Below are positions 5,446-14,378 of a stretch of DNA of 14,606 bases, piece after piece. A program made the position numbers and the translations under genes. The DNA comes from a virus (Duplodnaviria > Heunggongvirae > Uroviricota > Caudoviricetes), in IMG/VR virus record IMGVR_UViG_2703718848_000009. The stretch is one strand, 5' to 3'. The notes beneath the pieces were generated by a model. It saw only the letters and a list, made by a program, of their open reading frames with translations. It was not told the origin of the DNA and searched no databases. The stretch's first letter is position 1; the number at the start of each line of letters is the position of its first letter.

Positions 5446-5733
5446 TTACTGACTACAATTGTTCTTTTTTTGGTATTTCCTGAATGCCTCACCATTGGGC
5501 TGATGTAATCCCATCCCGGCATGTGCCCGGCTGATGGTTTCGCGCATCTCCCCGAAATTATCCTGCCTTGCTGGTGGGCGTGCTGCCTTGTGGATACATT
5601 CCGCGCGACGTTTTGCCGCCTGTTCCCGTGCCTTGTCATCATTCGCCAGCATGATGACCTCAGCCCACCGCGCCGCCGCTCTCCGGTACAGACCACGCGC
5701 TTCCAGTGCTTCCGCTTTGCTGTCGTGAATCAT
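5446..5733 (-). CDS. PerC-family transcriptional activator-like protein
   Basis: KAEALEARGLYRRAAARWAEV matches the conserved PerC/Pch core as I recall it. AAGGAG Shine-Dalgarno upstream. Start overlaps the stop of the upstream ProQ-like gene (ATGA). Confidence 0.65.
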   Translation of the reverse strand: MIHDSKAEALEARGLYRRAAARWAEVIMLANDDKAREQAAKRRAECIHKAARPPARQDNFGEMRETISRAHAGMGLHQPNGEAFRKYQKKNNCSQ

Positions 5734-6272
5734 GCGCCTATTGTCTCCTTTGCTGCCCGGCGCTGGCGTTTGCGCTTCTCATTCAGCGCCACCAGCCGCG
5801 TTTCTGCGTCCTGTTGTTCCTGTGGTGTCACCTCGCCGCACGGCTGGCCTTTCAGGTCGTAGCGTACCCCACCAGCCATTAAGGCGCGGTAATAGTGCGG
5901 ACACTGCGCATAAGATGCCAGCGTCGCACGCAATGCCCCTGGCCCGAATGCCAGCCCCCTGACGGCGAGATCCTGCATCAGGTCGTCGAATATCCCCACC
6001 TTAAGCGGCTTCGGTGCTTCCCGGCTGAATAAGTCAGGCCACAACTCAGTGAGGCGGTTAACGCGCCTGCGGTTTTTGCGCTGGCGTTTGGTCATATGCC
6101 GCCACGGTGTCGCCCCTGTGGGCTTTTGCTGCGCTTTCTGGTTACCGGGCATCACTTTATGCGCCGATGTGGTTTTATCCTGCTCCTGCGCCGCCTGCGT
6201 CGTTTTCTGCGGCGTGCCGTAAATGCCTTTCGGTTTTCTGTTAATGGTCAGCTTAGTCATGCTTTGCCCCAT
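5730..6272 (-). CDS. ProQ/FinO-domain RNA-binding protein
   Basis: PKPLKVGIFDDLMQDLAVRG...LRATLASYAQCPHYYRALMAGGVRYDLKGQPCGEVTPQEQQDAETRL parallels the ProQ N-terminal FinO-like domain (recalled as ARPLKIGIFQDL...[35 protein letters not shown]). The true start may be the Met at 6260 rather than 6272. Confidence 0.75.
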   Translation of the reverse strand: MGQSMTKLTINRKPKGIYGTPQKTTQAAQEQDKTTSAHKVMPGNQKAQQKPTGATPWRHMTKRQRKNRRRVNRLTELWPDLFSREAPKPLKVGIFDDLMQDLAVRGLAFGPGALRATLASYAQCPHYYRALMAGGVRYDLKGQPCGEVTPQEQQDAETRLVALNEKRKRQRRAAKETIGA

Positions 6273-6594
6273 CGTTACAACTGTCTACCGATATAATTGT
6301 TTGATTTATTTAATGTTATTAACACATAACAAAAAAACAATCTGCAAACTGTCTACCAACTCTCTACAGTATTAATACATTGATAATTAATGACTTTTAC
6401 TAAATGGTAGACAGTGTAGATAGTTAAAAGAAAAATTTTAAAAATGAACCCATAACTATCTATTTTTAGATACCCCCGTGGTTTAGAAATATAAAATAAA
6501 CTGTCCACCTCTCTACCACATTAAAAATACCTATATAATTCAAAACATTAATTAGTAGATGGTTGGTAGAGGGTTAAGTGTATCTGTCTACCAA
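6273..6594. repeat. Iteron-like CTGTCTACC repeat array in AT-rich DNA, candidate replication origin downstream of the primase gene
   Basis: CTGTCTACC at 6281-6289, 6349-6357 and 6584-6592; inverted GGTAGACAG at 6407-6415; variants CTGTCCACC (6501), TCTCTACC (6510) and GGTAGAG (6565). Flanked by A/T runs. A 20-N gap follows at 6595-6614. Confidence 0.5.
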
Positions 6595-8391
6595 NNNNNN
6601 NNNNNNNNNNNNNNCTGGTAACCATCCATCAGCATCTTTATCTAACAGAACATTTGTGATCGTTCGCCCTTTATCTGGACCTTTAGTACATTTAGCCCGC
6701 TTGTACTCCTTTCCGTACTCAGCCATTGCCCCTGGCATATCTGTACCAAAGCGTGTCAGTGATACCGGTTTTCCCAGACCATGCGCAGACATATAAGCCA
6801 AATAAGCATGATACAGATATCGCCTCGGGCTAAATGGCACTATTTCTGCATTACCTACTATCATTCCCTCACATTTAACCAACGACATCAGATAACCGCA
6901 GAAGTCCACCAGCGAATCACCTTCACGCTTTATCAACAGTGCTTCTTCTGATTTTTGCTGCTCATAAAGTAGTCTTTTCGCTTCGTCCTGGTCGGCAAAT
7001 CGTGTAAGCAAATGGCGAATCACTACTGCCAGTTCCCCTTCTATCTTTTTCGCCAGCATCGGATCGCGTTCGTTCTCTGGTACAACCTCAGAGAAATTAA
7101 ATATTACTCGTCGACGCGAGATCCCCCCACTACGGTCGCTGAATGACATGGCATAATTGTTTACTACCAGCACTACCGCAGGAACGCGCGTGGAATAGGG
7201 CGCTTTGTGTTTCGGATCGATAGCCACCTTGTCACCGCCTGTAATGGCCTTAATCCCAGCACCATCACCTGCGTAGCGGGTCATGTCAGGCATGATAATC
7301 AGAGAATATCCCACCACTAACGCTCGTTCCCTCGCGTCTTCCAGCGCCTTCATGCTCGCCGATACTGTATTGGCCTTACCCGCCAGCATGGTACAAATCT
7401 CCGCCATCACACTTTTACCGCTTCCGCCCGGCCCCGTTACCTCAAGGAATAACTGCCAGTCGTACCGGTTCGCCAGTACCATGAATAATGCCGCCAGTAC
7501 GCGATCCGCTTTACGAGCATTATCCGCCACCGAACGACGCAACCACTTCCAGAAATTCGGCGCATGTGTTGCCAGCGTTTCCCCCTCTTCTGGCGGGCTG
7601 AACGGTAATTCACTGGCATTTAACAACCAGTCATTTTTGTTGTGTTCCCGAAAATTTCCTGTCCTGATATCAAAAACACCGTTACTGAACCCAATAAGAT
7701 TTCTGTCCGCTCCCCCCATAACAGGTAGACTCAATTTCATTGTCTCTACGGCAAATTTAATGGCGTTTTGCGAATAACTAATTTCGGCATCAATAAAAAT
7801 CTTCGCCATAGACCGCTGGAGTTCCTTATCAGATACAGGCTCCCAAACAATTCCGTTGTAATGGTGAACTACATCAGAATCATCATTTATCGCCAGTGCT
7901 CCTCCATAATGTTCAAGTAACACTTCCCCTCTCTGGCTGGCTCCCATCTGATTTAATGCAGGCTTGGGTAGACCACTATTTTTTGTAGCTAATTTCATCA
8001 CTGAAACTTCCCCGTGCTCAGCCTGTTCGCGGATCCGTTGCAGGTAGTCGCGCCAGTTCTCCGGTTCCTGGTCGGTGATACCTTTGTATAATTTCGCCTC
8101 CTGTACGCCAGCCAGCGCCAGCTTTTCAGCGATAGTATTGATCTGGATTGGCTCTATCTCCCCCGCGATATAGACACGCGCAAAACGGCGTTTCTCGTCA
8201 ATAATGCGGATATTCGCCAGGTCTGCCAGTTGCTTTGGCCCCAGGTAAACAGGAGGCACGTTATCGCCGTGTTTTCGTCCTTCACTTTCAATCCAGTGTT
8301 GAGCATGGGCGTAAGCATCCGTCCCGGCAAAAATGATTACCTCAGTGAATTTATCCTTCGGCTGATATTTTAGACTCGGTGCGTTTTTCAC
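6574..8391 (-). CDS. Phage/plasmid primase, P4-family (alpha-like) with SF3-helicase-type P-loop NTPase domain
   Basis: 605-codon ORF. Walker A motif VTGPGGSGKS and a downstream Walker B-like hydrophobic-acidic stretch (LIIMPDM). The C-terminus is interrupted by the N-run at 6595-6614 (X residues in the translation), so the 3' end is uncertain. Confidence 0.85.
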   Translation of the reverse strand: MKNAPSLKYQPKDKFTEVIIFAGTDAYAHAQHWIESEGRKHGDNVPPVYLGPKQLADLANIRIIDEKRRFARVYIAGEIEPIQINTIAEKLALAGVQEAKLYKGITDQEPENWRDYLQRIREQAEHGEVSVMKLATKNSGLPKPALNQMGASQRGEVLLEHYGGALAINDDSDVVHHYNGIVWEPVSDKELQRSMAKIFIDAEISYSQNAIKFAVETMKLSLPVMGGADRNLIGFSNGVFDIRTGNFREHNKNDWLLNASELPFSPPEEGETLATHAPNFWKWLRRSVADNARKADRVLAALFMVLANRYDWQLFLEVTGPGGSGKSVMAEICTMLAGKANTVSASMKALEDARERALVVGYSLIIMPDMTRYAGDGAGIKAITGGDKVAIDPKHKAPYSTRVPAVVLVVNNYAMSFSDRSGGISRRRVIFNFSEVVPENERDPMLAKKIEGELAVVIRHLLTRFADQDEAKRLLYEQQKSEEALLIKREGDSLVDFCGYLMSLVKCEGMIVGNAEIVPFSPRRYLYHAYLAYMSAHGLGKPVSLTRFGTDMPGAMAEYGKEYKRAKCTKGPDKGRTITNVLLDKDADGWLPXXXXXXXLVDRYT

Positions 8392-8678
8392 TTCTTACCT
8401 CCCGCAACCAACATTGCCCGGATTTTTTTAATATTCGTGGCTGCACGTCTCGCCACTGCCTGTTGTTTGTTTTCCACCAGAATAAAATCACGATCAAACT
8501 GACGGCGCGGCATTACGCAGTCATATTCGTAAGCCTCACGGCGGTAGGTGATATTGCCTGGCGTAACGTGACGAATAACCACCCGTCCCCCGCGTCTGGT
8601 GTCCCGGAAAATATCACCGGGGCGGATTTCAGGCCGAGAGAGGCCGCTGGCAGTAAAGCCAGAATTTTTCTTTTTCAT
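8388..8678 (-). CDS. Hypothetical basic protein (96 aa), immediately upstream of and overlapping the primase start
   Basis: ATGA overlap with the primase start at 8388-8391. Part of the tightly packed minus-strand operon. Confidence 0.55.
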   Translation of the reverse strand: MKKKNSGFTASGLSRPEIRPGDIFRDTRRGGRVVIRHVTPGNITYRREAYEYDCVMPRRQFDRDFILVENKQQAVARRAATNIKKIRAMLVAGGKK

Positions 8679-8682
8679 GGTT

Positions 8683-8883
8683 TTATTTTCCTGTCAGCAG
8701 TTCCGGTTTTATTTCCGCACGAATACAAAGTTCAGAAAAAAATTCAGGAGAACCAACAATCTCATTACTTTTCAGTCGGCATTGTGATTTCACTTTCCCT
8801 TTATCCAGGTAAACCAGTACGCGTCCGGTGAAATCATCTGGCACATTAAGCACTACGGGTACATGCGCTTCATGATTATGCAT
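8683..8883 (-). CDS. Hypothetical protein (66 aa)
   Basis: ORF in the operon; 4-nt gap to the next gene and 8-nt overlap with the previous one. Confidence 0.45.
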   Translation of the reverse strand: MHNHEAHVPVVLNVPDDFTGRVLVYLDKGKVKSQCRLKSNEIVGSPEFFSELCIRAEIKPELLTGK

Positions 8884-9109: not shown

Positions 9110-9467
9110 GTTTACCCCCCTGAATGACCTGATAACCGCAACTGGTCAGCAACTCGATAAATTCCGGCAGTGTGCCGAAACAGCAATCATCACGCAGCCG
9201 TTCGCGGGATACTTCAACGCCGTTTTCGTAGTGACTCACCATACGCCCGGTAAAATGCAGATCATCATCGTGATGGCTCGTTGACGGCTTAATCAGTCGC
9301 GCACGTTCCGCCAGTTCCAGCAATGCTTCAACGCTTCCGGCAATTGCACCATCCGGCAGGTGGTAATTACGCACTATGCGCCCGTTCTCCACATTGACCA
9401 GCAACTGCCCGGTAAATTTCTCGTCAAACTGAATGCTGTTAAGGTCAGAAATTGACAGGTTATGCAT
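9102..9467 (-). CDS. Hypothetical protein (121 aa)
   Basis: AGGAGGTG Shine-Dalgarno 5 nt upstream of the ATG at 9467. The ORF-track start at 9485 lies inside that RBS, so 9467 is preferred. ATGCATAA-type overlap with the upstream gene's stop. Confidence 0.55.
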   Translation of the reverse strand: MHNLSISDLNSIQFDEKFTGQLLVNVENGRIVRNYHLPDGAIAGSVEALLELAERARLIKPSTSHHDDDLHFTGRMVSHYENGVEVSRERLRDDCCFGTLPEFIELLTSCGYQVIQGGKHA

Positions 9468-9684
9468 GGTGCACCTCCTGCACATCAGCCATGATAATTT
9501 TTCCGGCCTTATCCAGTGCCTGATCGGCTTTTAGCTGCACAAATGCTAAATAATGGGAGATGCATTCTGATTCTCTGGCTGCGTGTTTATGCGCCACACC
9601 AGCGATAGCAGAAATCTCAATAAGTGAATCCATCAGCGTTTTGATAGCGTCTACCGCTGCATCAGGCCATGTTGCATTACACAT
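9460..9684 (-). CDS. Hypothetical protein (74 aa)
   Basis: ORF with 8-nt overlaps on both sides within the operon. Confidence 0.45.
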   Translation of the reverse strand: MCNATWPDAAVDAIKTLMDSLIEISAIAGVAHKHAARESECISHYLAFVQLKADQALDKAGKIIMADVQEVHHA

Positions 9685-9880
9685 GTTCCACCTCCTGGCG
9701 AATACGGGCGGCGAATACCATCACGCAGCCATCAGGAGATTGCTGGCGTGCTTCCTGTTCGCTGGTGGCCTCGATGTGAATTACGCGCGGTTGTGCCGTG
9801 CTCAGGGCGATAAAACGCCAGATGTATTTATTCAGGTTGTGCGAGTCCCGCCCTTGCGGGTGTGTGGTATGATTTCTCAT
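9677..9880 (-). CDS. Hypothetical protein (67 aa), probable first gene of the replication operon
   Basis: ATG at 9880 preceded by GAGGT Shine-Dalgarno (5-nt spacing). It is the in-frame C-terminal part of the 435-codon ORF, but has its own RBS and lies just downstream of the operator palindromes. Confidence 0.45.
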   Translation of the reverse strand: MRNHTTHPQGRDSHNLNKYIWRFIALSTAQPRVIHIEATSEQEARQQSPDGCVMVFAARIRQEVEHV

Positions 9881-10984
9881 AGCTACCTCGATACTCTTGC
9901 TATCGTTGGTGGTTAGACGCCCTGCATGTGTGCCACCACTGCGGGGCGTTGTCGTTTCTGCACCTTGCATCAACAAGGTGTTGAACACCAATTTAAGCCC
10001 AGGTGTTAAACACGTCAAGTGTTGAACACTTATTTTTTTTCCTGCATACTGCATTTGTTTTTTGTAAGGGGTACACAACATGGCGACAAAAGCAGTAAAC
10101 GCAAAATCACAAACAGTTGCGGCAAGGGTTCCGCATGAAGTTATGAACAATGTTGAGGCGGTAAAAATGCCTGGTGAAAGTACAGGGCAGTTTGTAACAG
10201 CAGCATTAAAGCGAGAAGTTGAATACCGCCAGCGCCGCAAGGCCAAAGAACAGGAGTAACCATCACCAGCGCCGTGGTGTGAGGAACTACGGTGCATCGT
10301 TTTACAGGGCTGCGCCATGACCAACAAAGAATCAACCAATACACCATCACCGGCACGGAAAAGACAGCGCAGAAAGATAGCGTACGAGCATGAGTCAAAC
10401 AGATTCGCGCCCTGTGCGTTTATCCTTGAGAAATTCCTTAAAGAGTACAGGCGCACAAAAATGGGGTCGCATACCTGGAAAACATCGCGGCATGGCAATG
10501 TTAAAGAGCAGGAATAGCCCACCAGCAAGCCAGCATATTCACCATAATGACCCTCAGTTAAACATAGAGTCATTGGTGCAAAGCTGACACATTGCCCACC
10601 AGCCGCAAATCTGGCATTGTTGGCGATGCGTTCAAGTATGTAGCTTTCCCACTGGCGGCCCTCTGCGGTCGCCTTTGTTTTATCCAGAACGAAATCAGAC
10701 ATCAGATTGATCAGCACCTGGCGACCTGACAAAATCGCATCAGTCGCGCCACCAGCAAAATTTTTTGCTTTCCGGACAGTGTGACCAACGACATTTTGCA
10801 GCAAAATATTCTGCATTTCTGGCGTGCTGTAGTAACGGTGATCAGCGCCTTCACTCTGTGCGACCACAACGCTATAATCTGCCTCGTAGACAGTAAGCAA
10901 TATGGCGCAGTAGGCTATTCGTTCACAAAGGCGCTCCGGCAACGGGGCGCTTTCTCTTTTTGTAACGGTCAGAGCGTTACACAT
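9677..10984 (-). CDS. Uninterrupted 435-codon ORF; only the N-terminal ~140 residues look protein-like. Probably a real ~140-aa hypothetical protein whose stop is missing or shifted, running on antisense to the RHH gene
   Basis: ATG at 10984 overlaps the stop of the antirepressor-like gene (translational coupling). Residues 1-~140 have ordinary composition; the remainder is Cys/Ser/Thr/Arg-rich and low-complexity and lies opposite the plus-strand RHH gene and operators. Confidence 0.35.
   Translation of the reverse strand: MCNALTVTKRESAPLPERLCERIAYCAILLTVYEADYSVVVAQSEGADHRYYSTPEMQNILLQNVVGHTVRKAKNFAGGATDAILSGRQVLINLMSDFVLDKTKATAEGRQWESYILERIANNARFAAGGQCVSFAPMTLCLTEGHYGEYAGLLVGYSCSLTLPCRDVFQVCDPIFVRLYSLRNFSRINAQGANLFDSCSYAIFLRCLFRAGDGVLVDSLLVMAQPCKTMHRSSSHHGAGDGYSCSLALRRWRYSTSRFNAAVTNCPVLSPGIFTASTLFITSCGTLAATVCDFAFTAFVAMLCTPYKKQMQYAGKKISVQHLTCLTPGLKLVFNTLLMQGAETTTPRSGGTHAGRLTTNDSKSIEVAMRNHTTHPQGRDSHNLNKYIWRFIALSTAQPRVIHIEATSEQEARQQSPDGCVMVFAARIRQEVEHV
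9961..10031. promoter_or_regulatory. Cluster of GTGTT-N-AACAC palindromic operators in a divergent promoter region
   Basis: Perfect palindromes GGTGTTGAACACC (9977-9989) and AGTGTTGAACACT (10018-10030), imperfect GGTGTTAAACAC (10002-10013), plus inverted repeat CACCTTG...CAAGGTG (9961-9980). Followed by a T8 tract and the RBS of the plus-strand ribbon-helix-helix gene. Confidence 0.5.
10080..10259 (+). CDS. Ribbon-helix-helix (CopG/Arc-like) transcriptional regulator, 59 aa; not in the supplied ORF track (below its length cut-off)
   Basis: ATG at 10080 with AAGGGG Shine-Dalgarno 7-8 nt upstream; TAA at 10257-10259. Translation MATKAVNAKSQTVAARVPHEVMNNVEAVKMPGESTGQFVTAALKREVEYRQRRKAKEQE shows the classic RHH pattern (beta-strand TVAARVP, helix, G-x-S loop, helix FVTAAL). 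Palindromic operators immediately upstream. Confidence 0.55.
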   Translation: MATKAVNAKSQTVAARVPHEVMNNVEAVKMPGESTGQFVTAALKREVEYRQRRKAKEQE

Positions 10985-11768
10985 GGCTGTTTTCCTCCAT
11001 GCGACGGGCTAACCAACGCTGCGAAAGACGAATTAATTCAGCCTTCCGCTGGTGGTAGTCCTGGCCTAACTCAATCAGCGTGATATTGCTCTGCTCAAGG
11101 TAAGAAAGGTGCTCAAGCTGCAACGTGCTCATGTGGTCGCGTGGTTCGCCTGTAATGCCGTTCGCCAGTGCCCACTGTTTTGCAGTCATGCCACCCAGCA
11201 CGATACGCGCCAGCATGTTCGCTTCCGTGGTGTAGTGGTGCTGGAGTGTGTTTTTACCCAGTTCAGCCCGGTACGCCTCCAGCGCGGCACACATTGGCTT
11301 AAAGTAGCTGGCAACTGTGATACGGGCTTTCAGTTCCCGGCGTAACGCTGCGGAACGAACAGGCGCAACCTTGTGTAGCTCCTCCTCGCATTTGATAAAG
11401 TACTGGCGAACGGCGCGGCCCTGTTCGGTACGTTCGACCATCGCCAGTTCTTTCGCCATGTTCACTGTGATGATGTACTCAAGAGCGGTTTGCTGGCGAG
11501 ATTTTGCGCTCACCGGATCGGGTCGGCTCAAATATTCAACAACCTCATAATCCACGCCTTCCGTGAACCCGTATTCTTCAATGNNCCACGAACGGAAAAC
11601 GCGCCCTACACCTAACGCCTTATGTAACGCTCTGGCGCTAACAATAGTGGTTTCACTCCCGCCAATAACGCCGGAAATAATCGGGATAATTTCGCCGAAA
11701 TTTTGCAGATTCTGGTTTTCAGGCCGAACGAAGCCCCGCCCCTGTACGGGCGTTTTTGGAAATTTCAT
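10977..11768 (-). CDS. Phage-associated protein, possibly antirepressor/Bro-N-like DNA-binding protein (function uncertain)
   Basis: 263-codon ORF directly downstream of alpA. Contains ALHKALGVGRVFRSW, reminiscent of phage antirepressor N-terminal domains. One residue is masked by NN at 11584-11585. Confidence 0.6.
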   Translation of the reverse strand: MKFPKTPVQGRGFVRPENQNLQNFGEIIPIISGVIGGSETTIVSARALHKALGVGRVFRSWXIEEYGFTEGVDYEVVEYLSRPDPVSAKSRQQTALEYIITVNMAKELAMVERTEQGRAVRQYFIKCEEELHKVAPVRSAALRRELKARITVASYFKPMCAALEAYRAELGKNTLQHHYTTEANMLARIVLGGMTAKQWALANGITGEPRDHMSTLQLEHLSYLEQSNITLIELGQDYHQRKAELIRLSQRWLARRMEENSHV

Positions 11769-11845: not shown

Positions 11846-12043
11846 TCAGGTAGCTGTTCCGCGTGATTCCGCAATACGCTGATTAATCCACTCGTCAATT
11901 TCACTCTCAACGAAAGCAATAGCTCGCGAGCCAATTTTAACTGATGCAGGAAATTTACCTTGCCCCATAAGGCGATAAATCCATGCCTTGCTATATCCAG
12001 TTCTACGCTGAACTTCTGTTAAACGAATAAGCGTATTTGACAT
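11846..12043 (-). CDS. alpA: AlpA-family phage transcriptional regulator (HTH)
   Basis: MSNTLIRLTEVQRRTGYSKAWIYRLMGQGKFPASVKIGSRAIAFVESEIDEWI matches the AlpA consensus (L.RL.EV...TG.S...IYRL...G.FP..VK.G.R...W.ESEI.EWI). GAGGT Shine-Dalgarno 7 nt upstream. Confidence 0.85.
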   Translation of the reverse strand: MSNTLIRLTEVQRRTGYSKAWIYRLMGQGKFPASVKIGSRAIAFVESEIDEWINQRIAESRGTAT

Positions 12044-13041: not shown

Positions 13042-13163
13042 ACCTCAGCGTCCTCTACTGTAGTGGCTGTACCAGTCCGTCGAGGTGTACGGATTTTCGG
13101 GAGCGACCCTAGACACAGCCTTTTCTTTCGTCGCTCAAAGTCTACTACTGTATACTCAACCAG

Positions 13164-14378
13164 TCACCCGCATTTTCCGAACTCACCATGCACCACATTT
13201 CCGCCATGCTCGAGCGAATCCATATAATCAGCGTACCACTGAAGCATTTCCCGCCGCCCATCCAGATATTGCGCATGGTTGTATGTGCCACGAATTGAGT
13301 TTTTATCGACGTGCGCAAGCTGTGTCTCTATCCACGCGGTGTTATAGCCCTGCTCATGCAAAATGGTGCTCATAGTGTGCCGGAAGCCATGACCAGTAAC
13401 CTTTCCGTTATAGCCGATGCGTTTAAATACTTGGTTTATGCTAGCCTCGCTCATTGTTTTCCTTGGATCATTACGGCCGGGAAACATAAGCGGATAATTG
13501 CCAGTTAGTTCTTTAATCTGCCCAATAAGCGAAAGAGCCTGCTCAGACAAAGGCACTACATGAGGGCGACGCATTTTCATCCGTGAAGCAGGTATCTCCC
13601 AGATAGCCTTGTTGAGATCGATTTCATCCCATAATGCACCGCGCAGTTCGCCAGTCCGCAAACCGGTGATAATCAGTAAACGAGCCGCCATAACAACCAA
13701 TGCACTTCCTGAGTAACTGGACAATGCCTTGAAAAAATCAGGTAATTCTTTGGCTGTGAGGAAAGGATAATGATTAGATTCATGACCTTGCATCGCGCTG
13801 GTGAGATCCGGTGCAGGGTTATACTCAGCACGTCCAGTGACAATTGCATAGCGGAAAACTTCCCCACATCGCTGCCTCACTTTTTTGGCTTTTTCGGTAG
13901 CACCGCGCCCCTCGATGCGCCGCAGCACATTCAGCAGTTCAAGTGGTTTGATTTCGGCGATTGGTTTTTTGCCAATGTAAGGGAACACATCTTTGTTGAA
14001 GGCTTCGAGGATGTCTGAAGCATAACCAGCAGACCATTTTTTTAATTTGCTGCTGTGCCACTCAAGGGCAATATCTTTGAAGGTGTTGTTTAACTGCGTT
14101 TCCCGGGCAATCTTTTCCTCTCGTTTCGCTTCCATCGGATCGATACCCCCAGCGATACCCCTTTTAGCTTCTTCACGTTTTGCACGAGCATCAGCCAAGG
14201 TAACTTCAGGATACACACCTAGTGCTAACAGCTTCTCTTTACCAGCTACACGATACTTGAAGCGCCAATATTTTCCTCCACTAGGTTTTACCAAGAGATA
14301 CAGACCACCACCATCAGCCAGCTTGTAAGCCTTCTCTTTTGGCTTGGCAGTGTCTATTTGACGGGCATTGAGTTTCAC
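13164..14378 (-). CDS. int: Tyrosine recombinase, P4-type integrase
   Basis: 404 aa. N-terminal MKLNARQIDTAKPKEKAYKLADGGGLYLLVKPSGGKYWRFKYR is the typical P4-integrase N-terminus. Catalytic-domain residues R..HxxR..Y are present (GLRTGELRGALW, GHGFRHT, RGTYNHAQY). GTG start with GGAGG Shine-Dalgarno. Adjacent to the tRNA-derived att core. Confidence 0.9.
   Translation of the reverse strand: MKLNARQIDTAKPKEKAYKLADGGGLYLLVKPSGGKYWRFKYRVAGKEKLLALGVYPEVTLADARAKREEAKRGIAGGIDPMEAKREEKIARETQLNNTFKDIALEWHSSKLKKWSAGYASDILEAFNKDVFPYIGKKPIAEIKPLELLNVLRRIEGRGATEKAKKVRQRCGEVFRYAIVTGRAEYNPAPDLTSAMQGHESNHYPFLTAKELPDFFKALSSYSGSALVVMAARLLIITGLRTGELRGALWDEIDLNKAIWEIPASRMKMRRPHVVPLSEQALSLIGQIKELTGNYPLMFPGRNDPRKTMSEASINQVFKRIGYNGKVTGHGFRHTMSTILHEQGYNTAWIETQLAHVDKNSIRGTYNHAQYLDGRREMLQWYADYMDSLEHGGNVVHGEFGKCG

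Follow-up and report, generated by a model that had tools for sequence, protein, structure and literature searches.

The window analyzed here is a stretch of 14,606 nucleotides (nt) from the IMG/VR virus record IMGVR_UViG_2703718848_000009, and our subject is an open reading frame (ORF) of 435 codons on its minus strand (9677-10984). The window is a P4-related or phage-inducible chromosomal island (PICI)-type satellite island integrated at tRNA-Thr next to proA of Escherichia coli. The long ORF begins with ATG and runs uninterrupted, antisense, through a ribbon-helix-helix (RHH) regulator gene and three operators. The original prediction, made from the sequence alone, reported all of these features correctly. 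It explained the frame as that of an upstream gene whose stop codon was lost or frameshifted. We find that selection keeps the frame open whatever amino acids it encodes, and that the frame overlaps the gene upstream of it, to which it is presumably coupled. It ends in or overlaps a Kil-family gene and covers an antisense repressor unit. We think it probable that the frame is the island's version of the nested eta/kil pair of P4, in which translation would escort transcription through the repressor operon.

The 368 codons upstream of an internal start at position 9880 contain no stop codon. Over the same stretch the other two frames of the minus strand have 16 and 21 stops, and the frames of the opposite strand have 13-14 each. 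The extension was open in 0 of 5000 mononucleotide shuffles, and the stop density of the other frames puts the chance of such openness at about 1e-8. Directly upstream, in the same operon, lies the AntA/Bro-type gene antA (10977-11768, minus; Pfam AntA, E 9.2e-20). Its stop codon falls inside the start of the long ORF in an 8-nt ATGTGTAA overlap (10977-10984, minus), an arrangement that suggests translational coupling. A second ATGTGTAA overlap (9677-9684, minus) joins the far end of the long ORF to the following gene (9460-9684, minus), whose start contains the stop codon of the long ORF. The downstream products of both junctions start with MCNA. Both ends of the ORF also carry a 12-nt direct repeat, GC(A/G)TTACACATG (9674-9685 and 10974-10985), that may serve as a joint for cassette exchange.

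The long ORF closes with a nested Icd-like, Kil-family gene of 67 amino acids (aa), which shares its frame and has its own ATG at 9880 (9677-9880, minus). Its product scores 71.7 bits against the NCBIfam model phage_ICD_like (NF033153, a 48-position domain model with a cut-off of 25), and the match spans residues 387-430 of the 435-aa translation. The Shine-Dalgarno sequence GAGG is located 5 nt upstream of this ATG (9886-9889, minus), and 21 loci have GAGG or GGAG at this place. The suggestion that the last ~67 residues form a protein with a ribosome-binding site of its own is thus borne out. Pfam and NCBIfam scans of the long ORF returned no match beyond the Icd domain, and Pfam by itself gave none at all for the long ORF, the repressor, or the small downstream ORFs. 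The translation of the middle of the frame is junk-like and rich in Cys, Ser, Arg, and Leu.

The icd gene is preceded by a structured leader (9889-9949, minus). Hairpin 1 pairs 9917-9926 with 9940-9949, and hairpin 2, which pairs 9889-9893 with 9901-9905, touches the Shine-Dalgarno sequence. Both hairpins recur in 21 loci that span more than 10 genera, with compensatory changes in 6 of the 14 predicted pairs. The leader matches no Rfam family. It could contribute to RNA stability, control icd translation, or be a protein-binding site.

Public annotations of this region are inconsistent. RefSeq annotates a 134-aa 'Icd-like' protein in E. coli strain S40 (9677-10081) that starts at a CATG shared with the start codon of the small repressor gene, itself annotated on the opposite strand. 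Many other public records name the whole 435 aa 'host cell division inhibitor Icd-like protein'. Neither version fits the 67-aa product that the Shine-Dalgarno sequence and conservation suggest, and the annotation should be corrected to a division inhibitor of about 67 aa.

The gene opposite the middle of the frame, here called ylcI, encodes a probable 59-aa repressor of the YlcI/YnfO family (10080-10259, plus). The protein has the RHH fold and matches the NCBIfam model YlcI_YnfO_N (NF041551) with 59.7 bits at a cut-off of 30. The three GTGTT-N-AACAC palindromes of the original prediction are copies of the predicted operator AGGTGTT(G/A)AACAC (family D1), at 9976-9988, 10001-10013, and 10017-10029. 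They overlap a leftward promoter-like site of the icd operon (9990-10018, minus) that is the putative analogue of P4 PLE. This site combines a -35 element TTGACG (10018-10013), a 17-nt spacer, and a -10 element TAAATT (9995-9990), with 9 of 12 consensus matches, and its TTGAC is kept across genera. A weak rightward promoter is predicted by sequence reading at about 10022-10050 on the plus strand.

Since the three palindromes overlap the leftward promoter-like site, a repressor-controlled divergent promoter for icd and the replication genes is plausible. This part of the original explanation stands, and is strengthened by operators that co-vary with the repressor allele. Other RHH alleles are accompanied by repeated operator motifs of their own, mostly GTG-N5/6-CAC in three copies (loci L002, L009, L026, L035, L036, and L042-L058). 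The motif varies with the allele; its threefold repetition and the -35 element TTGAC of the icd strand stay the same. Such allele-specific operators are the pattern expected of diversifying immunity specificities. The YlcI/YnfO family is the probable immunity repressor of these islands. A literature search on YlcI/YnfO found no function for the family.

Downstream of ylcI, a small basic ORF of 66 aa (orf66; 10317-10517, plus), called hypothetical by the NCBI annotation pipeline PGAP, is probably the second gene of a rightward repressor operon. It matches no family. Its core RFAPC(A/S)F.LE.FLKE is shared by several alleles, its product and that of ylcI both end in KEQE, and its substitutions are rarest at the second codon position (10 versus 20 and 21). 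The operon ends in a predicted intrinsic terminator (10654-10683, plus), GGCGGCC-N6-GGTCGCC followed by TTTGTTTTAT, whose opposite strand encodes KTKATAEGRQ. Seven of the 11 loci from other genera also have this hairpin and T-run, there within the first ~20 codons of the long ORF, and its reverse complement gives a recurring 'KTKA..GR' motif. Because the ORF starts at the reverse complement of the repressor-operon terminator in these distant loci, it covers the antisense unit almost end to end.

A second terminator-like hairpin (10928-10963, plus; 11 pairs, 7 of them G-C, tail CTCTTTTTGT) falls in the stretch of the long ORF that encodes its first 23 residues. On the plus strand, this hairpin is preceded at a distance of about 50 nt by a promoter-like site made of TTCACT, a 17-nt spacer, and TATAAT (10 of 12 matches). 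The region 10850-10963 may therefore give rise to a plus-strand countertranscript of ~80 nt that would be complementary to codons 8-33 of the long frame. Between promoter-like site and hairpin, the segment at ~10852-10915 occurs as two very different alleles among the E. coli relatives (aa 24-44).

Relatives of the locus were fetched in three ways, with the N-terminus, the Icd domain, or the repressor as query, none of which requires an open frame. The first set comprises 39 IMG/VR loci from related E. coli islands matched by the first 133 residues. In 38 of these, the frame from the same ATG is free of stops as far as the Icd C-terminus, with 18 different total lengths between 258 and 598 codons. 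Locus L024 is the exception: its cover is split between two ORFs that share 79 nt. The second set is a scan with Icd only, using one genome per species, which gave 17 usable loci. In twelve, the Icd start is preceded by 215-350 further codons in the same frame. One of these is E. ruysiae, and 11 are from other genera, namely Cedecea, Pantoea, Enterobacter, Klebsiella, Hafnia, Rahnella, Intestinirhabdus, Superficieibacter, Acerihabitans, Rosenbergiella, and a metagenome-assembled genome of an unclassified member of the Enterobacterales. The extensions in other genera are unrelated in sequence to that of E. coli, and their translations are junk-like too. In these genera too the long ORF is joined closely to the gene before it, a Bro/AntA or alpA gene whose stop it overlaps or immediately follows.

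Four of the five remaining loci of the second set were inspected (L045, L049, L051, and L055; L050 was left out). In each, a long ORF in a different frame overlaps the Icd ORF or is coupled to it through ATGA. The repressor query, the third set, retrieved a 293-codon ORF in Proteus mirabilis that extends from the stop of a Bro-N gene, through an antisense ylcI, to an Icd-like end. In 21 loci other than P4 the extension has no stops, against 4-31 in each other frame, and was open in 0 of 5000 shuffles. P4, the 22nd locus, has no stops against 3-6 in the other frames, and 22 of 5000 shuffles were open.

These comparisons bear directly on the idea of a lost stop or a frameshift, by which an ordinary upstream gene of ~140 aa would now run by accident through promoter and repressor into icd. 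The junk-like middle and the RefSeq inconsistency (134 aa in S40, 435 aa elsewhere) would suit such an accident. The idea nevertheless fails, because the frame is actively kept open in relatives: in 38 of 39 E. coli loci with 18 lengths, in 12 of 17 loci in the one-genome-per-species scan, and in Proteus. In other genera the sequence of the extension is unrelated, and the frame has no stops against 4-31 in each of the others. Comparison of related elements reveals no free-standing 'upstream gene' with a usual stop, and its supposed product has no homologue family of 140 aa of its own, only 20 relatives among 1.84 billion cluster representatives. The corresponding DNA also lacks coding periodicity, as described below. 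We regard an accidental fusion as scarcely credible. A sequencing frameshift as the cause of the open frame was ruled out by the stop counts per frame together with the population data.

The immunity device inside the frame differs among relatives. One locus (L032, 3001-4602) has a single 533-codon ORF that holds an antisense ylcI as well as same-strand isrK-like and C4-like RNAs, and another (L045) has immunity of the RNA type (C4/isrK). From this hybrid and the RNA-type locus we conclude that protein and RNA immunity modules are exchangeable cassettes within one read-through frame. L024 (3933-4580) also combines isrK-like and C4-like RNAs with ylcI, but there a frameshift splits the cover into two ORFs.

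Codon choice in the repressor genes themselves seems to avoid stops in the antisense frame. That frame is open across each of the 17 RHH or small genes tested, with a probability of staying open under synonymous resampling of 0.04-0.71 each. By their coordinates, all of them are phased such that the two strands share third codon positions, as is the case for ylcI and the long ORF. The open frame could in principle be a passive by-product of composition or of plus-strand constraint, in which a purine-rich sense strand yields an antisense strand poor in stops. The plus strand is indeed A-rich at 10125-10574 (AT skew 0.27-0.39), and the phase with coinciding third positions is the least constraining one for overlapping genes. 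Against this, the other frames of the same strand have 16 and 21 stops in the 368 codons, only ~380 of the 1104 nt lie opposite plus-strand ORFs, and synonymous recoding leaves the frame open in just 4-71% of cases, yet 17 of 17 repressor genes have it open. A purely compositional origin is very unlikely.

Selection on the encoded amino acids was assessed by counting substitutions among the 39 relatives at long-frame codon positions 1, 2, and 3, together with a crude ratio of nonsynonymous to synonymous polymorphism (pN/pS). The control genes antA (30/32/77), alpA (2/1/10), and orf127 (30/25/62) show the expected excess at third positions. The Icd core (9677-9814) does so as well, with 0/6/20 substitutions and a pN/pS of 0.04 that indicates strong purifying selection. 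The stretch opposite ylcI also has a third-position excess (4/3/16), which arises because the third positions of both strands coincide there. Owing to these shared wobble positions, the constraint on the two strands is inseparable in this stretch, where pN/pS is near 0.5 for both. The counts are flat in the supposed N-terminal domain (10654-10984; 29/28/29) and in the operator and leader stretch (9/12/14), with pN/pS values of 0.75-0.90, that of the N-terminal stretch being ~0.75.

The first ~140 residues had been thought to look like protein. Besides the flat substitution counts and the pN/pS of ~0.75, a search with the first 133 aa against the 1.84 billion cluster representatives gave only 20 relatives, mostly near-identical sequences, fragments, or long forms, and no independent family. 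In other genera, unrelated sequence takes the place of this part. On these grounds, the N-terminal stretch is not a protein domain in the evolutionary sense, and its lack of codon periodicity indicates that openness is selected rather than amino-acid sequence.

A genuine multi-domain protein, with an N-terminal domain, a variable linker, and Icd, would make the ORF and ylcI a true antisense overlapping coding pair. The extension is in the Icd frame in most loci, as it is in P4, none of the E. coli variants differs in the first 23 residues, and the pN/pS of the N-terminal part is 0.75 and not 1. The invariant N-terminus, however, coincides with the plus-strand terminator-like hairpin at 10928-10963, and amino-acid-level purifying selection of the kind that such a coding pair entails is absent outside the Icd core and the stretch opposite ylcI. 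The extensions are non-homologous between genera and range from about 150 to 480 codons, and the domain scans are blank outside Icd. Where the frame is broken (L024, L045, L049, L051, and L055), the loci keep the ORF cover and not the fusion. We thus consider a functional multi-domain protein unlikely. The original prediction had set aside a real long ORF across the regulator as the unusual alternative; it turns out to be closer to the truth, except that conservation appears to concern translation as such and not the protein.

The closest known system is the eta/kil pair of P4. In PMC10111431, which draws on Forti et al. (1999, J Bacteriol 181:5225), Kil is described as a truncated form made from an internal promoter, with full-length Eta made only from the upstream late promoter. 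The article also relates that translating eta keeps transcripts that begin at the upstream promoter from ending early, so that they read through. P4 Kil (65 aa) is found by the same NCBIfam Icd-like model with 76.1 bits, and P4 eta matches the model too. Kil is the C-terminus of the P4 ORF at 8168-8812 (eta), which has an ATGA overlap with the stop of vis, the AlpA homologue. P4 ORF88, annotated 'excisionase and transcriptional regulator', matches the window's AlpA-type gene in position. The Kil-Icd link comes only through the NCBIfam model: tblastn with Icd had the satellite vB_KppS-Ant as its sole match and missed P4, and when a small Icd alignment was compared with P4 Kil as profiles, the match had a probability of only 36%.

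In both P4 and the window, a Kil/Icd-family gene is nested in frame at the 3' end of a long ORF. Each long ORF starts upstream of an internal promoter (in the window, a promoter-like site) and overlaps the gene before it in the alpA/vis unit, through ATGA in P4 and ATGTGTAA in the window, as expected of translational coupling. Both long ORFs lie between alpA/vis and the replication genes, and both have a junk-like upstream translation. The two also differ. P4 eta holds the same-strand immunity RNAs C4/CI (8420-8507) and isrK/seqA (8615-8705), whereas the window has neither. An Rfam search over the whole window and a permissive one (E ≤ 10) over 9650-11000 found no C4, c4-a1b1, isrK, or other regional family, and the permissive search gave only chance-level matches to a plasmid antisense RNA and a ctRNA terminator. 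What lies within the window's ORF is an entire protein-repressor operon on the opposite strand, operators and terminator included. With 435 codons against 199-214, this ORF has roughly double the length of eta, and an AntA gene stands between alpA and the ORF. Because no CI or seqA RNA lies inside the ORF and its anti-termination function is only proposed, we file the window as an eta/kil-like variant and not as the same module.

The nesting itself invites another explanation, namely that the extension alters Kil, making the long Eta form inactive, unstable, or mistargeted, with the short toxic form produced only from the internal promoter. In-frame nesting is kept in P4 and in most loci, and PMC10111431 presents Kil as a truncated Eta. 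The out-of-frame variants in five loci, four of them from other species, speak against such a role, which also gives no reason for the ORF to extend over the antisense repressor unit, beginning at the terminator. We give this explanation little weight.

Read as an eta/kil-like system, the locus would work as follows. In the quiescent state, the RHH repressor would occupy the three operators over the leftward promoter-like site and keep icd and the replication genes off. The counterpart of kil would be the 67-aa Icd-like gene, with its own Shine-Dalgarno sequence and ATG, downstream of the repressor-controlled internal promoter near 9990-10018. The counterpart of eta would be the whole frame from 10984, entered through the ATGTGTAA overlap by ribosomes that finish antA. 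Given this mode of entry, eta would be translated only on transcripts from the upstream alpA-antA unit. Promoter activity and operator binding, like the protection from Rho discussed next, are proposed here by analogy with P4.

Once induced, transcription from alpA-antA would have to cross ~1.1 kb without a leftward gene, antisense to the repressor operon. The unit crossed would comprise the rightward promoter with its operators, the RHH repressor gene, orf66, and the terminator at 10654-10683. Rho prefers RNA that is pyrimidine-rich with more C than G, and the leftward RNA opposite ylcI has this composition. Coupled ribosomes would cover the ~1.1 kb of leftward RNA, so that the transcript could escape Rho-dependent termination. 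They would run on into icd and then into the next coupled gene, and RNA polymerase would reach the replication genes. Leftward transcription would at the same time collide with, and be antisense to, expression of the repressor, and we infer that it probably interferes with it.

Several points weigh against this interpretation. The 38 open frames are not independent trials, since mosaics related to one another make up much of the E. coli set. The N-terminal pN/pS of 0.75 is below 1 and reflects some constraint, which could stem from signals in the RNA or DNA, for example the two terminators on the plus strand. Anti-polarity alone needs no icd frame, yet most loci are in frame; this state may be inherited from a P4-like ancestor or reflect a role of the fusion product. 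The out-of-frame variants favor translation cover over a fusion protein, and the common in-frame state leaves room for a role of the long product. Finally, AlpA-family proteins can be antiterminators, which would make ribosome cover less necessary (PMC7969949).

Other systems share parts of this logic. The immI region of phages P1 and P7 (c4-icd-ant) is the source of the Icd family name, and translation of the small icd ORF there is needed for transcription of the downstream gene to go on, by way of Rho-dependent polarity. The window differs in that it has no c4-type RNA and that its ant gene is upstream of icd, as opposed to downstream in P1. To our knowledge, P1 has no long antisense-spanning ORF. 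The switch promoters of phages 186 and P2 are arranged face to face: lytic transcription opposes the repressor unit, and transcriptional interference is part of the switch. The overlap in these phages is short, and the likeness to the window is a resemblance only. We know of no long translated ORF described as antisense across the repressor gene in 186 or P2.

The isrK-orf45-anrP region of Gifsy-1 provides an example on one strand. There, orf45 is conserved in nucleotides and variable in amino acids, its ATGA-coupled translation is required for expression of a downstream antirepressor-type gene, and IsrK is a structural homologue of P4 seqA (PMC4825925). With 45 codons on the same strand as the regulator RNA, orf45 differs from the window's ORF in having no protein gene opposite. 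The 'Bro zone' of Gram-negative PICIs, as described in PMC10111431, has the same order as the window, with integrase, AlpA, a Bro/AntA-type gene, an immunity function, and primase. It differs in that its immunity RNAs lie within the Bro-zone genes, and the word 'antisense' does not occur in the text of that article. The passages of PMC10111431 consulted on 'repressor' and 'immunity' contain no antisense protein repressor inside an eta-like ORF, nor did literature searches on YlcI/YnfO and on EcCICFT073, Rho, and antisense retrieve an eta-like ORF that is antisense through a protein-repressor operon.

The window's frame would extend the P4 eta/kil principle of translation as anti-termination from a single phage with RNA immunity to widespread PICI/P4-like islands with RHH protein immunity. 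It also adds a comparative example to the debate on antisense overlap, with a frame strongly selected to be open while its amino-acid sequence drifts. On balance we lean toward a broader proposal, in which satellites of Enterobacterales carry 'escort ORFs' of 250-600 codons that are selected only for being translated, lie antisense over the whole repressor operon between its terminator and its operators, and form the read-through arm of a bistable switch. Upon induction from upstream, ribosomes would carry polymerase through the repressor gene, which would be silenced by collision and antisense RNA, and Rho would be evaded. Repressor genes would be coded never to put a stop on the opposite strand. 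If this is true, escort ORFs show clearly that selection can act on an antisense reading frame whatever its product.

The surrounding genes are those of a satellite island. The window is 99.9% identical to a segment of E. coli strain S40 (NZ_CP010235) that lies between a truncated LysR-type pseudogene and tRNA-Thr/proA. About 1390 E. coli genomes have this region. Its DNA has almost no similarity to a phage collection, with a single 75-nt match. The minus strand encodes, in order, an integrase (13164-14378), a hypothetical gene, the AlpA-type gene, the AntA/Bro-type gene, the 435-codon ORF, four small ORFs, a DUF4222 gene, and a P4-alpha-type primase (6574-8391). Most junctions from the 3' neighbor of the long ORF down to the primase are overlaps, and 8683-8883 and 8388-8678 are separated by a 4-nt gap. 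The AlpA-type gene (11846-12043, minus) is the putative counterpart of P4 vis and heads the leftward unit that would feed the long ORF. Its label is given by position and by the upstream int-alpA RNA motif, and PGAP calls it no more than a 'helix-turn-helix transcriptional regulator'.

The int-alpA RNA motif (Rfam RF02996) is located between the integrase and the next gene at 13052-13119 on the minus strand, with 45.5 bits against a gathering score of 35.8, and is present in L002, L024, L032, L035, and L049 as well. Short masked stretches of N, translated as X, break ORFs at ~2180-2200, ~6580-6600, and ~11590, and affect the primase C-terminus and one antA codon, among others. Downstream of the primase, the minus strand encodes ProQ/FinO-family and PerC-family proteins (5446-6272). 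The PerC gene is an intact 95-aa ORF in the window and is called frameshifted in strain S40.

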